Assembly (NCBI GenBank): GCA_934119955.1
Contig: CAKOSZ010000001.1
Coordinates: 46,592-110,591, forward strand
Reading direction: 5' to 3'
DNA from: an uncultured Bacilli bacterium
GTDB taxonomy: Bacteria > Bacillota_I > Bacilli_A > RF39 > UBA660
DNA: 64,000 bases
In this document: in pieces, positions 20,056 through 56,615 of the stretch
How the letters are laid out: every line of letters starts with the position of its first letter
How positions within the stretch are numbered: position 1 is the first letter of the stretch
Notes under the pieces: model-generated
What the model saw: the letters and a program-made list of their open reading frames with translations, nothing else
What the model was told of the DNA's origin: nothing
Database searches by the model: none
Translations under genes and position numbers: made by a program

Positions 20056-21027
20056 TTAATTATTTAATTCTTTCTTGATGTTTTCTAATTCTTTTTGATT
20101 AAGATTAGTAATTTCCATTATTTCTAAATCACTCATATTTTTATTTAATAAATTTTTAACTATAAGGGTTTGATTTTCTTTTTTTCCTTCTATTTTCCCT
20201 TCAATTATTCCTTCTATTTTTCCTTCAATTATTCCTTCCATTTTTCCTTCAATTATTCCTTCGTTTTTTCCTTCAAGTTTCCCATCAGTTAATCCAGCTA
20301 AATAGTTTTCCTCGGCTCTTAAATTTCTTTCCATATCCTCAGTCATGATTTCCTCCAAATATTTATTATCATTAGATAAATTATATAACTTTTTACTATA
20401 ATAATTTAACTCTTCATATTTAGAAAACTTTTTTAATTTATCTTCTGTATCAACAGTTAGTAATTTATATAATTTATCATAATTATCAAGATTATCATAA
20501 CCTAATTTTTCATAATAATCAAGATTAATGTTAATTATTTTAATAAGATAATCAACATTATATAGTTCTTTTAAGATATCATCCATTGGATAATCATATG
20601 TAATTATTTTTTTAGAAGGAACTTTTTTACTAAGATTTTTAGTTTTATACCAATTAAGATTAACTAGTATTACTTTATAAAAATTTCCTTTATCATAGTA
20701 ATTATCTTTATCAAAATTATAATAATTAGATAAAGTATTCAAGGCATATAAAACATTTCTTAGATAAAAACCTTGATAATTATTATTAAGTTCTATTATT
20801 ATTTTTTGATTTTTATAAACAACTACTAAATCAACATATTTTACTCTTTCATTTTCATTAATTCTTGGTAGTCTAATATTTAAAACACTGACTTTTCCTT
20901 TAATCTCTTTTACATCACATTCAAGTATTTGAGATGAGGCCCATTCTAGTAAACTCATATCATTTTCATTAAATAAATCGTGAAATAACTTATCATATCT
21001 TACTTGTAAAATTTTCTTATTCTTCAT
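20056..21027 (-). CDS. Rpn family recombination-promoting nuclease / PD-(D/E)XK nuclease-family putative transposase (copy 1, with internal GIIEGKxE repeat expansion)
   Basis: N-terminal LFHDLF...ERVKYVDLVV...NQKIIIELNNNY pattern and C-terminal LEGKxEG repeats typical of Rpn/YhgA-like proteins. The first 251 aa are identical to the ORF at 56896. Confidence 0.6.
   Translation of the reverse strand: MKNKKILQVRYDKLFHDLFNENDMSLLEWASSQILECDVKEIKGKVSVLNIRLPRINENERVKYVDLVVVYKNQKIIIELNNNYQGFYLRNVLYALNTLSNYYNFDKDNYYDKGNFYKVILVNLNWYKTKNLSKKVPSKKIITYDYPMDDILKELYNVDYLIKIININLDYYEKLGYDNLDNYDKLYKLLTVDTEDKLKKFSKYEELNYYSKKLYNLSNDNKYLEEIMTEDMERNLRAEENYLAGLTDGKLEGKNEGIIEGKMEGIIEGKIEGIIEGKIEGKKENQTLIVKNLLNKNMSDLEIMEITNLNQKELENIKKELNN
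20197..20292. repeat. Four tandem copies of a 24-bp coding repeat (GIIEGK[MI]E) inside Rpn copy 1
   Basis: TTTTCCTTCAATTATTCCTTC[CT]AT repeated head-to-tail. Absent from copy 2. Confidence 0.7.
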
Positions 21028-27938: not shown

Positions 27939-28195
27939 TTTTTCCTCCTATAAAAAAACATTACAAACTAAGGACGAAATAACCGTGGTACCACCTTATT
28001 TTGTAATGAATTACACTTATTACGATAACGCGTTTAGCGATTTAACTCCATTTAGGTAATTTCCATATTAAACCGATTAGTTTCCACCACCCACTAACTC
28101 TCTAAACCAAATTTAATACTTAAAACTAAATTTCTTTGTTAAATATGACTATATAATAACATATTTATTTAAAATTGCAAATAGTTTTTTTAATA
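27939..28195 (-). promoter_or_regulatory. T-box riboswitch leader of tyrS
   Basis: Minus-strand RNA contains AGAGAGUUAGUGGGUGGUGGAAAC stem I start, T-box sequence AAGGUGGUACCACGG (plus-strand aaccgtggtaccacctt at 27981-27997), and a U-run before the AGGAGG RBS. Confidence 0.75.
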
Positions 28196-28233: not shown

Positions 28234-29937
28234 TTATTCTGCACTTATAATATAAGGATCATTTATACTTCCTGTTCCAGATATAATATTCGTTTGGGAT
28301 CCAAGACTTAAGACTGGACGAAGAGCGTCATAGCTATCAGGATCCGGCCAGCCTAAGTCAATGCCGTAGCGCCAGTCAGCCGCCCCCACGGAAAGCCCAG
28401 CAATAGGAGAAAGAAGCCAGAAAGCTGCTTGATCATTTAGCATCCAATTATTATAATTTTTATTTGCATAAACTGCTAAAACTTGATCCCCCCAACCACT
28501 TGGAATTCTTGCATATCCTAAATCACTTGGATATAATAAAGCAATTTTTCCATTCCATGTTGCTTGATTATTTTCTATTATATTACTCTCATCTCTTTCC
28601 ATTGCATATATTTCTTTTAATGTTCCATCATCTAATCCACCTAAATAATATTTCATATTCTCAATTAAATTACTATTTTCTAAACTATTTAAATAATTTT
28701 CATTTAAGTAATACATACTTACTGCTTTTGTCCAATCGTTATAATTCGTTTCTACACTTGATGGGTTATTCCAATAAAAATATTTATATTTTGTTCCTGT
28801 AACTTCTGTATTAAATACTTGATAAGTAATATTATCTTTTGTAATAGTCGCTGGCACTTCTGTACTTAAACTAATTGGTTCATCTTTTACTAGTTTTATT
28901 CTTTCAGCCTTTTCCCCATTTGCATTTTCTTCATTAAATATCCCCACTATTCTCCAAGTCTCATTATTAAATGTTACATAATTTCTTATTCCACTATCTG
29001 TTGGTATTGTTTGATTATTCTTTATACTTATAGTTGTTCCTCCAATATCAGTGCATGTCTTACCCATTATGTCAAACAAATCATTGTCTTCTGTTACAAC
29101 AAATTCTACATCACCTGATACATAACATGCTGTTTGAGGACAAGTATTACCTGAAACAGATATATTATAATCATTTGTTCCATCTGTATATGTACAATAA
29201 TTTCCTATTCCAGAATAACGATATTCTCTTATTGTTCCACCTGTTGTTGCTAGATCACCATCTGTGTTAACAGCCACAAGTCCATCTTGATTAGCACCAT
29301 TATATCTATTTTTTACTGTTTCAACAAAATTTGTTGGTGCTTCATATTTTCCATTTACATTTACTTTTATACTTGCAAATAAGTTTGACCAATCAGTTAA
29401 ATTATAGTCACAATTATCTGTTATATCTCCACTACATATATTAACACTTTCATCTATCCACATATATAATCTATATATTTTTGTTATTTTACTTGTTGTG
29501 TTTGCAGGTATTGTACTACTATATATTGTTGTATTATTAATATTTTCTATTGTTAATTTATCTTGTAAAATATTTTCTTGATTATTGTTAACTTCAACTA
29601 AACTAAATTTCAAGAATTTGTCTTCTATTCTTGTTTTATTTGCTTCTGTATCTCCATGAACTAATTCGATATTATAATTTACTCCATATTTTGTATGAGT
29701 ATTTTTTCCATCTATAGTAAATTCAAAATATTTAGTAGGATCATAAGTGCTACTTGGCATAGCACCTTCTATTTTAAATTCATTTGTTTCATTATAATGC
29801 ATATAGATGTCCCCTACTACAAGACTTGAATTATTAATACTTACCTTATTATAAGTAAAAAATGCAAATGATACTCCTATTGTTAATACTAAGATTGCTA
29901 TTACACTTAATACTATTATTAATTTTTTATTTTTCAT
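28234..29937 (-). CDS. Large secreted/surface-anchored protein (paralog A), N-terminal signal-anchor, Cys-containing extracellular region
   Basis: MKNKKLIIVLSVIAILVLTIGVSFAFF signal/TM. C-terminus ...RPVLSLGSQTNIISGTGSINDPYIIS shares a module with the 47683 gene. Confidence 0.5.
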   Translation of the reverse strand: MKNKKLIIVLSVIAILVLTIGVSFAFFTYNKVSINNSSLVVGDIYMHYNETNEFKIEGAMPSSTYDPTKYFEFTIDGKNTHTKYGVNYNIELVHGDTEANKTRIEDKFLKFSLVEVNNNQENILQDKLTIENINNTTIYSSTIPANTTSKITKIYRLYMWIDESVNICSGDITDNCDYNLTDWSNLFASIKVNVNGKYEAPTNFVETVKNRYNGANQDGLVAVNTDGDLATTGGTIREYRYSGIGNYCTYTDGTNDYNISVSGNTCPQTACYVSGDVEFVVTEDNDLFDIMGKTCTDIGGTTISIKNNQTIPTDSGIRNYVTFNNETWRIVGIFNEENANGEKAERIKLVKDEPISLSTEVPATITKDNITYQVFNTEVTGTKYKYFYWNNPSSVETNYNDWTKAVSMYYLNENYLNSLENSNLIENMKYYLGGLDDGTLKEIYAMERDESNIIENNQATWNGKIALLYPSDLGYARIPSGWGDQVLAVYANKNYNNWMLNDQAAFWLLSPIAGLSVGAADWRYGIDLGWPDPDSYDALRPVLSLGSQTNIISGTGSINDPYIISAE

Positions 29938-30162
29938 ACTTAACTCCTTTTCTTGAATAATTGCCCCTCTATTCTAATATAATTTTATTTTAACGTAGTT
30001 TTTATTTATTATAAAGTATTTTTATGTCTAAAAAAATCGTATTATGTGGACTATAAAAAAACATGATTAAGTTTACAGTTTATCTGTAATTTTTAGTAAT
30101 GTTTTTAAGTATCAATTATATATAATAATTCTTTACAAACTCTTTTACTTAGTTGGTTTTTC

Positions 30163-30246
30163 TTAGATATTTCTACCCCCCCCCCATGTAAAGTTTTGTA
30201 AAGTTAGAGTTTGATTAGTTGTAAAGCAATTATTTGGTTTATTCAT
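30163..30246 (-). CDS. Mini-ORF (27 codons, MNKPNNCFTTNQTLTLQNFTWGGGRNI) containing a G10 homopolymer; upstream ORF/leader peptide of surface locus A
   Basis: AAGGAG RBS 8 nt before the ATG. Conserved with the mini-ORF at 49740-49817. The G-run encodes the GGG tail. Confidence 0.4.
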   Translation of the reverse strand: MNKPNNCFTTNQTLTLQNFTWGGGRNI

Positions 30247-30272: not shown

Positions 30273-30301
30273 ATCATATCATGTTTTTATATATTTTTCA
30301 A
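30273..30301 (-). promoter_or_regulatory. Sigma-A-type promoter TTGAAA-17-TATGAT driving the mini-ORF/surface locus A
   Basis: Read on the minus strand: TTGAAA (30301-30296), 17-nt spacer, TATGAT (30278-30273). Confidence 0.55.
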
Positions 30302-47682: not shown

Positions 47683-49539
47683 TTATTTAAGAGCAATAGT
47701 AAATGGATTACTTTTAGTTCCATCTCCACCTGTTATAACGATATTTGATTTTAGATATATTGATGGACGAGCAGCAATAGTAGTGGAAAGTTTGATGAAG
47801 CTAACATCACCGGTTTTTTCAGTGTAATAAACACGAGAAGAGCTAGAAGGTGTTATTAACCACATACTACTTGAACCAGAATAACCACCTCCTTGTTGAC
47901 TGGCAAACATTTCTCCGTATCTTGGTAGCCCTACATAACCAGTATTCCAAATACTTGTTGTTTTAACACAATCTTTTGTTATTTCAGTGGTATTATTTGT
48001 ATTACATAAAGAATTTTTATAACTTGTACCTCTAGATATTTCTTTTATATAATATGTTCCTTTGTCTAACATATTTTTTTGTGCTAAACTATTATACCAA
48101 GTATTATTTAAATAATAATCCCAGTAATCATCACTATCTCCATTTCCATATGGTGTACTTGTACTAAACTTTTTAGTTAAAGTAGTTGTACCATTTTTTA
48201 TATAATCATTTTTATTTAATTTAACTTTCTCGTCTTCAATACTTACTATTCTATACAATTCTTTGGTTGTATTATTACCATCTTCGTCAAATATTACATA
48301 CTCACCTATTGTTCTTGTATTTAATAAAGTTGTATTTGCTGTTGCCGGTTCCTTATCTCCTAAAATTGTATATGGATCATCTTTGGTTCCCGAACCACCT
48401 AAAAGTTGGATATTTGATTTTAGATTTATTGACGGGCGAACACCATAGGTACTGGAAGGACTGCCGACGCCGTTGCTATCATTACCGCTGTTAGTAACAG
48501 CCCAAACATAAGAAGAGCTACAAGGATTTAATAACCACCAATCATAGCCTATATTTAAATAACCACCTGGGTATCCTATGTTTCCTATGTTTTTATAACT
48601 TAAATAATATTCATGCCTATTTAATAGCCCTACTGATGTATTCTTACCAATTGTAGAATTGTTTATTAAAGGTGTTATATTCCATGTACTATCTTCAACT
48701 ATTATATTTTGATAATTATATAAAGTATCTAAAAAGTCTTCATTTAACCATTGATACATGTATGATCCAGTATATGTTGTATCATCTTTTTTAGATATAT
48801 CATAAAAATTTACATCACTTCCGTAAGAAATAGTTGTAATTACATCATCTGTTATCATTTTCATAGTTCCATCAGAATTAATGGCTGTTATTCGCCAAAG
48901 TTTGCCACTATACCAAACATAATTAAAGTTTATACAAGTACTTGTTCCTGATATATAAGTTATACCATCTTCTTCTACTTTGGTTTTACATGAACCTGTT
49001 GGATTATTAACACTTGTTGCAATTGCATCTTTAACTGGTACTCCTAAGGTTTCATTTAGTTTTAATTCTATTCCTTGTTCAAGGGGAATTGGATAACCTG
49101 TTAAGCCTCCTTGGGTACCTAGTTTAATTGTTATGTCATTTTCTCCTATGTTTGTAAATGTAAAACTAAATGATTTAGATGAAGTCATATCACCTTCAAC
49201 TATATTATTTGTAAATGTTTCTGTTGATGTTACATTGAATAAAGATATACCTGACACTACTTCATAGTACATTTTATATGCTATTTGATTTGTTAATTCT
49301 GTTGTTAAATTAACAGTTAAAGTAATACTGCTTCCTTTTGGAATTGTAAAAGTATTATTCTCTTGATTTACTACTGTTGTTGTTATATTAATGGATGCTG
49401 TTTTTAAAACTATAACACTATTTTTTATAACTGATACTTCATAATATGCATACGATGAATACATTCCTATTGATAATACACACATTAATACTAAAAATAC
49501 TATAATTTTTTTATTTAAATTAATTTCTTTATCTAACAT
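47683..49539 (-). CDS. Large secreted/surface-anchored protein (paralog B) with two C-terminal repeat modules
   Basis: Signal-anchor. Modules ...RPSINLKSNIQLLGGSGTKDDPYTI and ...RPSIYLKSNIVITGGDGTKSNPFTI, related to the C-terminus of the 28234 gene. Confidence 0.5.
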   Translation of the reverse strand: MLDKEINLNKKIIVFLVLMCVLSIGMYSSYAYYEVSVIKNSVIVLKTASINITTTVVNQENNTFTIPKGSSITLTVNLTTELTNQIAYKMYYEVVSGISLFNVTSTETFTNNIVEGDMTSSKSFSFTFTNIGENDITIKLGTQGGLTGYPIPLEQGIELKLNETLGVPVKDAIATSVNNPTGSCKTKVEEDGITYISGTSTCINFNYVWYSGKLWRITAINSDGTMKMITDDVITTISYGSDVNFYDISKKDDTTYTGSYMYQWLNEDFLDTLYNYQNIIVEDSTWNITPLINNSTIGKNTSVGLLNRHEYYLSYKNIGNIGYPGGYLNIGYDWWLLNPCSSSYVWAVTNSGNDSNGVGSPSSTYGVRPSINLKSNIQLLGGSGTKDDPYTILGDKEPATANTTLLNTRTIGEYVIFDEDGNNTTKELYRIVSIEDEKVKLNKNDYIKNGTTTLTKKFSTSTPYGNGDSDDYWDYYLNNTWYNSLAQKNMLDKGTYYIKEISRGTSYKNSLCNTNNTTEITKDCVKTTSIWNTGYVGLPRYGEMFASQQGGGYSGSSSMWLITPSSSSRVYYTEKTGDVSFIKLSTTIAARPSIYLKSNIVITGGDGTKSNPFTIALK

Positions 49540-49739
49540 ATAAACTCCTTTTTGCCTCAGTATTCCAATACAATTTTATTTTAACATATATTTTATTTTT
49601 ATTAAACAAGTTAATTAGATTTTAAAATCATATTATATGGACATGTAAAAAACATGATTAAAAATCACAGATTGACTGTAAACTTAATCATGTTTTAATT
49701 TTAATTATTTTATTACAAAGCTTCTTGTTTAATAAGGGA

Positions 49740-49817
49740 TTATATCCCCCCCCCCCATGTAAAGTTTTGTAAAGTTAGAGTTTGATTAGTTGTAAAGTAA
49801 TTATTTAGTTTATTCAT
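49740..49817 (-). CDS. Mini-ORF (25 codons, MNKLNNYFTTNQTLTLQNFTWGGGI) containing a G11 homopolymer; upstream ORF of surface locus B
   Basis: AAGGAG RBS. Paralog of the 30163-30246 mini-ORF. Confidence 0.4.
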   Translation of the reverse strand: MNKLNNYFTTNQTLTLQNFTWGGGI

Positions 49818-49843
49818 TAAAACCAACTCCTTATCATATGAAA

Positions 49844-49872
49844 ATGATATCATGTTTTTACTTGTTTTTCAA
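49844..49872 (-). promoter_or_regulatory. Sigma-A-type promoter TTGAAA-17-TATCAT for the mini-ORF/surface locus B
   Basis: Minus strand: TTGAAA (49872-49867), 17-nt spacer, TATCAT (49849-49844). Confidence 0.5.
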
Positions 49873-49889
49873 TATGTTTTTAGTTAATT

Positions 49890-52181
49890 TTAAGTTATTT
49901 TTATTTTCTTTTTGTTATTTAAAATACTATCTATTACTAAGTTATCTATTTTATTCTCTAATATAGTATTAATATTTCTAGCACCATATAAATTATAATT
50001 AGATAGTTCTATTATTTTATTTACAAAGTTTTTATCTATATTAATAGTTATATCTTGTTGTTTTAATCTTTTTCTTATTTCTAATATATTTTTATTTATA
50101 ATATCTTTTATATTATCTCTTGTTAATTCATTAAATTGAATTATATGAGTTATTCTATTAATAAATTCTATTTTTAAAACATTTTTTAGTTTATCAAGTA
50201 TTACTTTATCTTGACTTTGATTAAATCCAATTGTATTTATATTAGAAGTAATATTACTTGTAAAAATAATAATTGCATGTTTAAAATATATTTTATCATT
50301 TTTACTATCTGTAATAAAACCTTCATCTAAAATTTGTAAAAATAAATCAATAAAAGCATTGCTAGATTTTTCTATTTCATCTATTAGTATTACTGAAAAA
50401 GGATTATTTTTAACACTTTCTAAAATACTATTATGAGAATCATATCCAACATATCCAGGTGGTGAACCTATTAATTTACTAATAGCATGACTTTCTTTAT
50501 ATTCACTTGCATCTATCCTAATTAATTCCATTTTCATATACTTGGCATATTGTTTTACAAGTTCAGTCTTTCCTATTCCAGATTTACCCGTAAATAAAAA
50601 TGATATTGGTTTTTGATTATTCTTTAAACCTAGTTTTATTTTCTTAGTTTCATTTACTAATATACTAATAGCATTATCTTGACCAATTATTTCTTTTTTT
50701 AAATTATTTTCTAAATTCTTTAATTCTTTTAAATTACTTAAATTATTTTCATAAACTGGTATATTAACTTTATTTTTAATTACTTCATTTATATCATTTA
50801 TACTTACTTCTTTTTTAGAATAATTAGTTTTATCAAGTTCTAAATTATTTAATTTATTCTCTAAAACTAATTCTTGTTTTTTATAATAAGAAGCATTTAA
50901 AAAATCTTGTCTTAATAAATATTTATTTTTTTCTTGTTTAATAAATTCTAATTCTTGTTCCATGTTTTCTTGTTTTTTCGTATTTTTATCTTTTTTAAGT
51001 TTTCTTAATATACAAACTTCATCTAAAATATCAATTGATTTATCTGGATTTTTTCTATTTAAAATATATTTATCACATAAATTAATAATTGTATCAATTG
51101 CCTGATCTTTAATAATTACTTGATGAAATCTTTCATAGATTGGTTTTAATTTTAATAATATTTCTTTGGTTTCTTCCTTTGAAGGTTCTTTTATTAAAAT
51201 TGTTTGAAAACGCCTTGCTAAGGCTTTATCTTTTTCAATTGAGTTTTTATATTCTATAATAGTAGTTGCTCCAATTAATTTTAATTTACCACGTGCAAGA
51301 GCTGGTTTAAATATATTAGATGCATCTATTGCTCCTTCGGCTCCCCCTGCTCCTACTAAGGAATGAACTTCATCTATAAAAAGAATAATATCAGGATTAT
51401 TTTCTAATTCTTTAATTATTTTATTAACTTTTTCTTCGAATTCACCTCTGTATTTAGTACCAGCAACTAAACTAGCCAGTGATAAAGACATGATTTTTTT
51501 ATTTAATAATTGGCTTGGAACACTTTTGTTACTTATTTTTAAAGCCAGTCCTTCTACAACTGCTGTTTTTCCTACCCCTGCTTCACCTATTAATAAAGGA
51601 TTATTCTTTGTTCTTCTTAAAAGTATTTCTATCATTCTATTAATTTCTTTATCTCTTCCTATTACAGGATCTATTTTATTCTCACTTGCAAGTTTTACTA
51701 AATCTGTTGCAAATTCATTTATTAATAACTTTTTATTACTTTTGTATTTAGAATTATCATCTTTATTTAAAAACTCTAAATACATATCATCTATATCAAT
51801 TTCTAAATTATTTAAAATTCTAATTGCAACCCCTTCTCCTTCATCTAAAAGAGATAAAAATAAATCATTTATATTAACACTTTCCCTACCTTCTTCTCTT
51901 GTATCAAGAATTGCATTTTCAATTATTCTTTTAAATAAAGGAGTATAAATAAAATAAGAATTTAAACTATTACCATAACCAATTATATTTAATAATTCTT
52001 CTTTAAAATTATCATAGAAAATATTATAATCATTTAATTTCTTAGTTAATTCTAAATCTTTATTGCTTAAAATACTTAACATTAAATGTTCTGTTCCAAC
52101 AAATGGGTGTTTTAACTTCTGCATTTCAATTTTAGCATTTTTTAAGACTTTGGTACAAACTTCATCAAATTTTTGAAACAT
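49890..52181 (-). CDS. ATP-dependent Clp protease ATP-binding subunit (ClpC/ClpE-like, two AAA+ domains)
   Basis: Clp_N repeats, D1 (VIGRDKEINRMIEILLRRTKNNPLLIGEAGVGKTAVVEGLA...LFIDEVHSLVGAGGAEGAIDASNIFKPALARG), D2 (FLFTGKSGIGKTELVK...ILIDEIEK). 763 aa. Confidence 0.85.
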   Translation of the reverse strand: MFQKFDEVCTKVLKNAKIEMQKLKHPFVGTEHLMLSILSNKDLELTKKLNDYNIFYDNFKEELLNIIGYGNSLNSYFIYTPLFKRIIENAILDTREEGRESVNINDLFLSLLDEGEGVAIRILNNLEIDIDDMYLEFLNKDDNSKYKSNKKLLINEFATDLVKLASENKIDPVIGRDKEINRMIEILLRRTKNNPLLIGEAGVGKTAVVEGLALKISNKSVPSQLLNKKIMSLSLASLVAGTKYRGEFEEKVNKIIKELENNPDIILFIDEVHSLVGAGGAEGAIDASNIFKPALARGKLKLIGATTIIEYKNSIEKDKALARRFQTILIKEPSKEETKEILLKLKPIYERFHQVIIKDQAIDTIINLCDKYILNRKNPDKSIDILDEVCILRKLKKDKNTKKQENMEQELEFIKQEKNKYLLRQDFLNASYYKKQELVLENKLNNLELDKTNYSKKEVSINDINEVIKNKVNIPVYENNLSNLKELKNLENNLKKEIIGQDNAISILVNETKKIKLGLKNNQKPISFLFTGKSGIGKTELVKQYAKYMKMELIRIDASEYKESHAISKLIGSPPGYVGYDSHNSILESVKNNPFSVILIDEIEKSSNAFIDLFLQILDEGFITDSKNDKIYFKHAIIIFTSNITSNINTIGFNQSQDKVILDKLKNVLKIEFINRITHIIQFNELTRDNIKDIINKNILEIRKRLKQQDITINIDKNFVNKIIELSNYNLYGARNINTILENKIDNLVIDSILNNKKKIKIT

Positions 52182-56364: not shown

Positions 56365-56615
56365 ATATCCTCCTTTAAAATAAAAGCACTGATTAAAAGA
56401 GGCGACTAATCACGGTACCACTCTTCTTATCAGTGCTTGATATCTCTTCTTGATAACGGTTATAAACCGATATTTTCTACTAAATTCAAAAATATACTCC
56501 ACAGTGTTATTCTTATATTCTTCCTGTTAATTTTCACCAACCATTAACTCTCTAAATGTAACTAAATATAATACTTCTCTGTATCATCGCTTTGATTAGT
56601 TATATTATATAACCT
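56365..56615 (-). promoter_or_regulatory. T-box riboswitch leader of asnS
   Basis: Minus-strand RNA has AGAGAGUUAAUGGUUGGUGAAAA stem I start, T-box AGAGUGGUACCGUGAUUAG, and terminator inverted repeat AAGCACUGAU...AUCAGUGCUUUU followed by a U-run. Confidence 0.7.

Follow-up and report, generated by a model that had tools for sequence, protein, structure and literature searches.

A leader present twice in a 64,000-nt stretch of DNA from an uncultured Bacilli bacterium (contig CAKOSZ010000001.1, positions 46,592 to 110,591; hereafter the window) precedes the genes of one family of putatively secreted proteins and appears, with moderate confidence, to act as a phase-variable transcription attenuator. 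In the proposed mechanism, the transcript would start at a promoter (P1) and carry first a well-initiated leader open reading frame (ORF) with a poly-G tract at or just before its end, then an intrinsic terminator ~50-75 nt past the tract, with the gene following either directly or behind a block of ~95 nt. Slipped-strand mispairing during replication would add or remove G residues, putting the ribosome in one of three frames. In two of these, translation would stop 0-9 codons past the tract and at least 33 nt before the hairpin, so that the terminator would form and the gene would be OFF or low; in the third, translation would run on until it reached or entered the terminator's 5' arm, the outer stem would be blocked, RNA polymerase would read through and the gene would be ON. 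From this arrangement we infer that the hairpin would terminate transcription, that a translating ribosome would relieve termination, and that expression would follow tract length.

Anatomy of the copy B leader

All leader features of the two window copies, A and B, lie on the minus strand, and window positions are used throughout. A sequence-only reading of this DNA had described a promoter, an AAGGAG ribosome-binding site (RBS), a mini-ORF and a poly-G tract upstream of a gene for a 618-aa protein (main gene B, 47683-49539, with an N-terminal hydrophobic anchor or signal and a weak match to DUF6273), and all of these parts are present. The predicted promoter P1 (TTGAAA-17-TG-n-TATCAT, 49844-49872) is sigma-70-like, with a 10/12 match and a TG-extended -10 hexamer. 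It is followed by the Shine-Dalgarno (SD) sequence of the leader ORF, AAGGAG (49827-49832), which is able to pair with AAUCAAACUCU within the ORF to form a hairpin, HP0, and by the leader ORF itself (upstream ORF, uORF; ATG at 49817), which at G11 comprises 25 codons (MNKLNNYFTTNQTLTLQNFTWGGGI*, 49740-49817). The tract (G11; a C-run on the plus strand) occupies 49746-49756, within the ORF and 88 nt downstream of the P1 -10 hexamer, and in an RNAfold prediction CUUUACAAAACUUUACAU together with the G tract pairs with a downstream CCC...AAGCUUUGUAA to form a further hairpin, HP1 (49713-49772). The window, at 23.4% GC, contains no G or C run of 7 or more besides the tracts of the two copies; the number of G10 runs expected from its base composition is ~7e-6.

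Past the tract lies the inverted repeat AACATGATTAA/TTAATCATGTT, which had been noted as an 11-bp repeat and a possible operator. The repeat exists, as the outer stem of a 48-nt hairpin (49696-49649) followed by a U-run (U6, 49652-49647) whose first U's are paired within the stem; as an operator it is disfavoured, since the hairpin, the U-run, sense-strand wobble pairs and an orientation that is constant in the orthologues point to a terminator. The whole intrinsic-terminator-like module (14 + 6 bp plus U-run, 49647-49696) has a predicted free energy (dG) of -19 kcal/mol and a z of -6.7, with 0 of 200 shuffled sequences as stable. Between it and the main gene, within a conserved block of ~95 nt, stands a second promoter-like site, P2 (TTAATA-16-TG-n-TAAAAT, 49578-49605), and the main gene has its own SD sequence, AAGGAG (49550-49545). 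From RBS to main gene the element extends over ~330 nt, where ~140 bp had been proposed.

The distance from the end of the tract to the main ATG is 206 nt in copy B and 238 nt in copy A, and the uORF closes with its own stop in every frame; an intragenic frameshift contingency gene was rejected because the tract lies outside the main coding sequence in both copies. No recombinase is adjacent, and a comparison of 49480-49920 with the Rfam covariance models gave no match at E <= 5 and none at the gathering threshold.

Distribution of the leader and the proteins encoded downstream

A Hadza gut metagenome (ERZ4560155) is the source of the 316-kb contig to which the window belongs, and loci L026 and L027 are the window sequence. 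A scan with the 20-mer CAAAACTTTACATGGGGGGG, taking one genome per species, returned 22 related copies in two metagenome-assembled genomes (MAGs): 16 loci in the uncultured Bacilli bacterium CAKPFH01 (Hadza) and 6 in Erysipelotrichaceae RUG14259, which with the two window copies make up a 24-copy set. Many copies in the two MAGs are found at contig ends, as expected of a repeat. A hairpin-only metagenome scan, unbiased toward the tract, added five loci with six hairpin matches, and every copy among them with upstream sequence has the uORF and a G tract or a decayed form of it; protein-guided look-ups yielded further leader copies. Altogether, ~40 copies have been found in related uncultured gut and rumen Bacilli, at least 16 of them in one MAG. 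Matches to the 20-mer in a cyanobacterium and in Sphingobacteriales (L003, L012 and L017) were rejected as unrelated to the element; in L003 and L012, which belong to a Microcoleaceae MAG, the 20-mer falls within a different repeat common to two contigs, ...TTGATCAGGAATAGGGGGTATGGTA....

Wherever enough downstream sequence exists, the next gene encodes a member of one putatively secreted all-beta protein family. The exceptions are L030 and L032, low-coverage human-gut contigs in which the leader is followed by higher-GC sequence outside the family, and which are probably chimeric. The proteins begin with a Lys-rich start and a hydrophobic stretch; those of the A type start MKNKK..LTIG.TY.IF..SKNS.LVVGDIYMHYNE, the hydrophobic stretch being followed by ...SKNSxLVVGDIYMHYNE, and the others have a B-type N-terminus. 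More than 795 database members of the family were found, nearly all from metagenome assemblies, and those with names are called hypothetical proteins. Searches of the downstream proteins against Pfam, NCBIfam and PDB sequences gave the weak DUF6273 match for protein B only, and no pilin or sortase domains. The AlphaFold model of protein A (predicted local distance difference test, pLDDT, 82) has an N-terminal helix followed by beta-rich domains, with weak fold matches to a Thomasclavelia ramosa IgA peptidase (E = 9e-5), an archaeal bundling pilin and the TasA fibre. It is reasonable, if not proven, to regard the downstream proteins as secreted or surface-exposed, and the family is probably one of variable surface or matrix components.

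The suggestion that the element is a mobile or duplicated regulatory cassette survives in part: it is a repeated cassette, not a freely mobile one, and constitutes the conserved 5' leader of one gene family. The earlier reading would have been refuted by a lack of further copies together with a lack of read-level variation, or by the element proving a terminal remnant of an insertion sequence (IS). The first does not apply, since further copies exist; nothing resembling the end of an IS was seen, and no transposase adjoins either window copy. Directly downstream of one family member elsewhere (L034, 3884-5182) are ISL3-family transposase genes.

Reading-frame geometry after the tract

The first stop codon was located in each of the three post-tract frames of every copy. 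Complete sequence and an uninterrupted tract are combined in 22 copies, each of which has just one frame open to within -4 to +33 nt of the hairpin start, the remaining two ending at least 33 nt, and mostly 46-72 nt, upstream of the hairpin (22/22). The rule holds despite spacers between tract and hairpin (51-75 nt) that are unlike in length and sequence, the open frame of copy B being a different one from that of the others, and this consistency over roughly six diverged spacer classes is suggestive.

For copy B, the long-frame stop is a TGA inside the terminator 5' arm (49688-49690; the frame-1 stop, +4 relative to the hairpin start), which would be reached at G10 or G13. A simulated G10 tract gives a uORF of 42 codons from the ATG at 49817, or of 54 codons from an upstream in-frame ATG at -84. 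As they stand in the window, copies A and B each read a short frame and are accordingly predicted to be OFF; the long, ON frame is predicted to need G9 or G12 in copy A and G10 or G13 in copy B.

Folding with a ribosome mask placed at either kind of stop agrees with this geometry. With the mask at the short-frame stop, the full terminator is still the minimum free energy (MFE) fold, at -14 to -22 kcal/mol (-11 kcal/mol for copy A, whose hairpin is weakened); with the mask at the long-frame stop, the outer stem is lost and a 6-bp inner hairpin is left that does not abut the U-run. An antiterminator of the trp type (2:3 pairing) was also considered and rejected, as just 6-7 AU-rich bp are possible and these are absent from the MFE fold with the ribosome at the short-frame stop.

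The same geometry recurs in a leader of unrelated sequence. In the Bacilli MAG GCA_017472015.1 (L052/L053), a homologue of protein A with 43% identity is preceded by a leader (1120-1500) with a promoter TTGAAA-17-TAGAAT, a 36-codon uORF ending ...STMGGV* over a G8 run and, 50 nt further along, a hairpin of -24.3 kcal/mol with a U5 run. Addition of one G gives a 73-codon ORF running through the hairpin; loss of one G or addition of two gives 52 codons, with the stop 2 nt ahead of the hairpin. Another homologue, L054, has no such leader.

Tract-length polymorphism

Among the 24 copies, the tract is G9 in three, G10 in 16, G11 in four and interrupted in one. Orthologues of copy B, fetched by way of variants of the adjacent Clp ATPase gene (98% identical), show the same locus in 10 other metagenome assemblies with G9 (four) or G10 (six). 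One G10 and one G9 locus (L036 and L037) are 100% identical over 4,890 nt upstream, and L036 differs from L038 and L044 by one G in an otherwise identical 410-nt leader. The G9 orthologues have a uORF of 45 codons with its TGA stop inside the terminator 5' arm, annotated as a gene by a public gene caller (4965-5102 in L037, L038 and L044); in the G10 orthologues the uORF has 25 codons. In the orthologue lineage TATATAAT follows the tract, and a T-to-G change in the window has turned G10+T into G11, in the same short frame; the copy B spacer is also 9 nt shorter than in its orthologues. The tract is hypermutable with high confidence. Long frames have been assembled in L004, L013, L029b, L031, L037, L038 and L044, a minority of the copies, and are probably present in L021 and L047 (G9, incomplete sequence) as well; such a minority is as expected of a variable, mostly silent family.

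Interrupted or decayed, 'locked' tracts occur in L028 (~720-775), L022 and L032. They read CATAGTGGGGGG (with a TAG stop in place of the Trp codon), GGGGGGGTGGGG and TTGGGGGTGGGG; L028 and L032 are low-coverage contigs in which sequencing errors are possible.

The homopolymer might instead act at the level of RNA, with RNA-polymerase slippage or ribosomal frameshifting on G9-11 yielding a fixed long-frame fraction and graded expression in place of an ON/OFF switch. It is known that transcriptional slippage can occur on runs of nine or more identical bases; the tract has stayed pure G when glycine could also be encoded by GGA or GGT, and GGG codons are rare at 23% GC. Against this stand the DNA length differences between same-strain assemblies and between paralogues (G9/G10/G11), together with the existence of locked tracts, and RNA-level action in place of switching is considered quite unlikely; it and heritable DNA switching are not mutually exclusive.

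Conservation of the leader

Alignment of 19-24 copies shows promoters that differ in sequence and keep the form TTGAAA-17-TGnTAnnAT, followed by AAGGAGTTGATT and the start codon. The first codons of the uORF are variable and include in-frame indels, despite which every copy keeps an open, in-frame ORF, and its end consists of the invariant nucleotide blocks TTACTTTACA and CTTTACAAAACTTTACAT. Codon differences within the uORF are 9 synonymous versus 58 nonsynonymous, with 8, 8 and 5 variable sites at the three codon positions; the ORF shows no amino-acid constraint and its conservation is therefore at the nucleotide level. A bioactive mini-peptide was rejected on this ground, from which it follows that peptidomics, proposed earlier as a check, is not the key test. 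Upstream, the uORF SD sequence GGAGUUGAUU pairs in HP0 with AAUCAAACUCY in the uORF (92% paired over the 24 copies, no covariation), and HP1 is predicted in every sequence class, with z from -0.2 to -5.4. Both hairpins may serve to time RNA polymerase and ribosome, or to protect the RNA.

So structured a leader, with HP0 and HP1, is also what might be expected of a sensor or arrest peptide, in which a ribosome stalled at the conserved C-terminus LQNFTWGGG, depending on a metabolite or on tRNA supply, would control an RNA switch, with the tract varying only incidentally. Hardly any variation is seen in the last 9 residues or their codons, and translation could be slowed at the Trp and the rare GGG codons after it. 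The conservation is, however, at the level of nucleotides, with changes in the rest of the ORF mostly nonsynonymous; no alternative antiterminator appears with the ribosome placed at the tract, and the peptide of the L052 analogue is quite different. An arrest peptide is accordingly thought very unlikely.

Conservation before the tract bears on one more possibility, that the tract sets the spacing of a phase-variable promoter with TTTACA, upstream of the tract, as its -35 and post-tract sequence as its -10. Every copy has TTTACA ahead of the tract, copy B has a perfect TATAAT behind it, and TTTACA-17-TACCCT can be drawn at G10 in the commonest class; but in copy B and its orthologues the spacing would be 11-13 nt, against the 16-18 nt required, the only hexamers on either side of the copy B tract being 13 nt apart, and the candidate -10 hexamers differ between classes (TACCCT, TATCTA, TATAAT). 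A transcript from such a promoter would still meet the terminator, and the promoter scan reported none there, so that this possibility can be given hardly any weight.

The terminator hairpin (AACAUGAUUAAGUUUACAG-loop-CUGUAAUUUUUAAUCAUGUU, with 6-8 U behind it) is nearly invariant. RNAalifold gives it as the consensus structure, and in the 24 copies it is 97.9% paired; 15 one-sided changes still pair through G-U on the sense strand, as variants of the 3' arm mostly do, and 8 cells are broken. Beyond it, two classes of leader can be distinguished. In the long class, which is represented in L002-L035 and includes both window copies, the conserved block of ~95 nt with TTTATA-17-TGnTAAAAT is followed by the main RBS; the block contains a possible helix, GUCC.../...GGGGC, ambiguous by eye. 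In the short class (7 copies) the main RBS lies 10-20 nt past the U-run, with neither the block nor any other promoter, and expression of these main genes must therefore cross the terminator.

The long class lends itself to another explanation, namely that P1, mini-ORF and terminator form a separate small transcription unit, with the main gene transcribed from P2 and the poly-G tract altering only the peptide tail or nothing of consequence. The conserved P2 site after the terminator in long-class leaders, both window copies included, speaks for it, as does a hairpin with U-run that would cleanly end a short transcript. It is difficult to reconcile with the seven copies in which the P2 block is missing and the terminator is followed at once by the main RBS, with a peptide that shows no amino-acid constraint, and with a leader always linked in cis to one gene family; the one-open-frame geometry would be purposeless, and an independent analogue keeps the same geometry. 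A separate transcription unit is on balance unlikely. For the geometry of the frames, the short-class copies and the analogue, the attenuator model is a better account than any of these rivals.

Copy A and its relation to copy B

Copy A has the same order of parts: a predicted P1 (TTGAAA-17-TG-n-TATGAT, 30273-30301), a leader ORF of 27 codons (MNKPNNCFTTNQTLTLQNFTWGGGRNI*, 30163-30246) containing a G10 tract (30176-30185), a terminator module (30055-30106, dG -7.9 kcal/mol), a P2-type promoter-like site (29987-30015) and main gene A (28234-29937), which encodes a 567-aa protein with an N-terminal helix and, after it, all-beta domains. Measured from start to start, the direct repeats formed by the two copies are 19,571 nt apart, in agreement with the ~19.5 kb given earlier. 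Their leaders are 86% identical over 155 nt and nearly identical across the ORF, and beyond 140 bp homology continues, more loosely, up to the downstream start codons. The substitutions P4L and C7Y in the leader peptide are confirmed, as is the extra G in copy B (G11 versus G10), which changes the end of the peptide, so that the two peptides differ at these residues and in the C-terminal tail. The downstream genes had been called paralogs; their products are indeed related, but remotely (23-31% identity in the C-terminal parts, E = 5e-6), so that conservation is much greater in the leader than in the genes behind it. The two copies could recombine, and mosaic leaders among the copies suggest gene conversion.

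The terminator module of copy A is inverted relative to all other copies. Where a single arm of the repeat had been reported, both arms are present; over 30055-30112 the canonical sense sequence is found on the plus strand, loop and internal bulges are exchanged, and the sense strand has two stem mismatches. This looks like a quasipalindrome or template-switch inversion. An invertible switch of the Clostridioides difficile cwpV type was rejected, the arms being just ~20 nt apart and the orientation constant in orthologues (the same in 9/9 comparable orthologous leaders); the copy A inversion is a fixed difference between paralogues. An exact look-up through the neighbouring tyrosyl-tRNA synthetase gene for orthologues of copy A yielded no further leader, the contigs having ended early.

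That synthetase gene directly follows gene A and is preceded by a sub-threshold T-box leader (27967-28145, minus strand; 71 bits against a gathering score of 93, E = 1.3e-15). A full-score T-box is located at 56395-56596 (minus strand), and 20176-20307 holds at least 8 tandem 12-nt units resembling TTCYWTTWTTCC, presumably a repetitive coding segment on the minus strand.

Evidence weighing against attenuation

Several observations count against the attenuator model. The terminator and both promoters are predictions only, and a P2-like site (TTTATA-17-TGnTAAAAT) past the terminator in most copies, both window copies included, could drive the main gene independently of the tract. Shuffling of the spacers gives at least one open frame by chance at P = 0.17-0.49 per copy, and the copies are related by descent, so that the 22/22 agreement is weaker than it looks. 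No double compensatory change was found in the terminator hairpin over the 24 copies, because its sequences are too conserved, and the case for an RNA structure consequently comes from conservation and wobble changes alone. In copy A the terminator is weak (-7.9 kcal/mol), and this copy may be leaky and perhaps not switchable. HP0, HP1 and the invariant nucleotide block before the tract are left unexplained by the model, and the G9 and G10 calls are the assembled consensus of homopolymers.

Significance and comparison with known systems

The phase variation of Gram-positive gut commensals has been little mapped, and surveys of metagenomes have centred on invertible promoters. If correct, the attenuator model would extend the sole characterised case of attenuation by repeats in a leader peptide to a homopolymer, to a multigene family and to the uncultured human (Hadza) and rumen microbiota. 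It would also supply a searchable signature for contingency loci: a short ORF behind a good RBS, with a homopolymer close to the ORF end, a terminator 50-75 nt on, and one frame open as far as the hairpin. A large unannotated family of secreted beta-rich proteins (>795 database hits) is flagged at the same time. With the leader on at least 16 paralogous genes per genome, each gene would have its own stochastic switch and the family would vary combinatorially; whether this is so, and whether attenuation by repeats in leader peptides is general and has been overlooked in low-GC Gram-positive bacteria, we judge to be evenly balanced.

The closest known system is that of the pil1 and pil3 pilus operons of Streptococcus gallolyticus, in which GCAGA repeats within a leader-peptide ORF undergo slippage (Danne et al. 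2014, PLoS Pathog 10:e1003860; PMC3894217). Short peptides there stop at least 28-39 nt before a stem-loop terminator and expression is low; longer, out-of-frame peptides stop adjacent to or inside the terminator, the ribosome blocks the hairpin and expression is high (PMC3894217). Both systems comprise a promoter, a leader ORF with a simple repeat, a stem-loop terminator and a gene for a surface structure, repeat slippage shifts the leader frame in both, and the hosts of both are gut-associated Gram-positive bacteria. The distance rule is also alike: at least 28-39 nt for short peptides there, and at least 33 nt here, against -4 to +33 for the open frame. The repeat differs, being a G homopolymer of 9-11 nt here and 13-22 GCAGA units there, as does the number of long frames, which is one of three here and two in S. 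gallolyticus and in the L052 analogue. Where S. gallolyticus has two operons for sortase pili, the present leader is a conserved cassette at no fewer than 16 paralogous loci per genome, preceding genes for unannotated secreted beta-rich proteins; the SD/anti-SD hairpin, HP1 and the 95-nt block with its second promoter-like site have no counterpart there. The mechanism has been demonstrated in S. gallolyticus and is here predicted from sequence. As the leader lacks GCAGA repeats and no pilus genes are associated with it, the two would be analogous in mechanism and not homologous. No other attenuation by repeats in a leader peptide was found in the literature searches beyond S. gallolyticus, and none with a homopolymer; the L052 leader, unrelated in sequence and apparently following the same logic, suggests that the strategy is not peculiar to the S. 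gallolyticus pili.

Homopolymer contingency loci offer a second comparison, whether the tract lies in the coding sequence (poly-G/C in Campylobacter jejuni and Neisseria) or in the promoter (Neisseria porA and opc, Mycoplasma hyorhinis vlp, Treponema pallidum tpr). Shared features are a hypermutable G/C homopolymer, an association with variable families of surface proteins, and tract lengths that differ between otherwise identical strains; the tract described here lies instead in a separate upstream ORF with a terminator after it, and not in the structural gene or a promoter spacer. Classical attenuators, namely the trp and his leaders and pyrBI of Escherichia coli, likewise have a translated leader ORF before an intrinsic terminator and let the position of the ribosome decide the fate of the hairpin. 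They differ in that the present leader has no cognate regulatory codons and no convincing 2:3 antiterminator, its input being the genotype of the tract rather than a metabolite.

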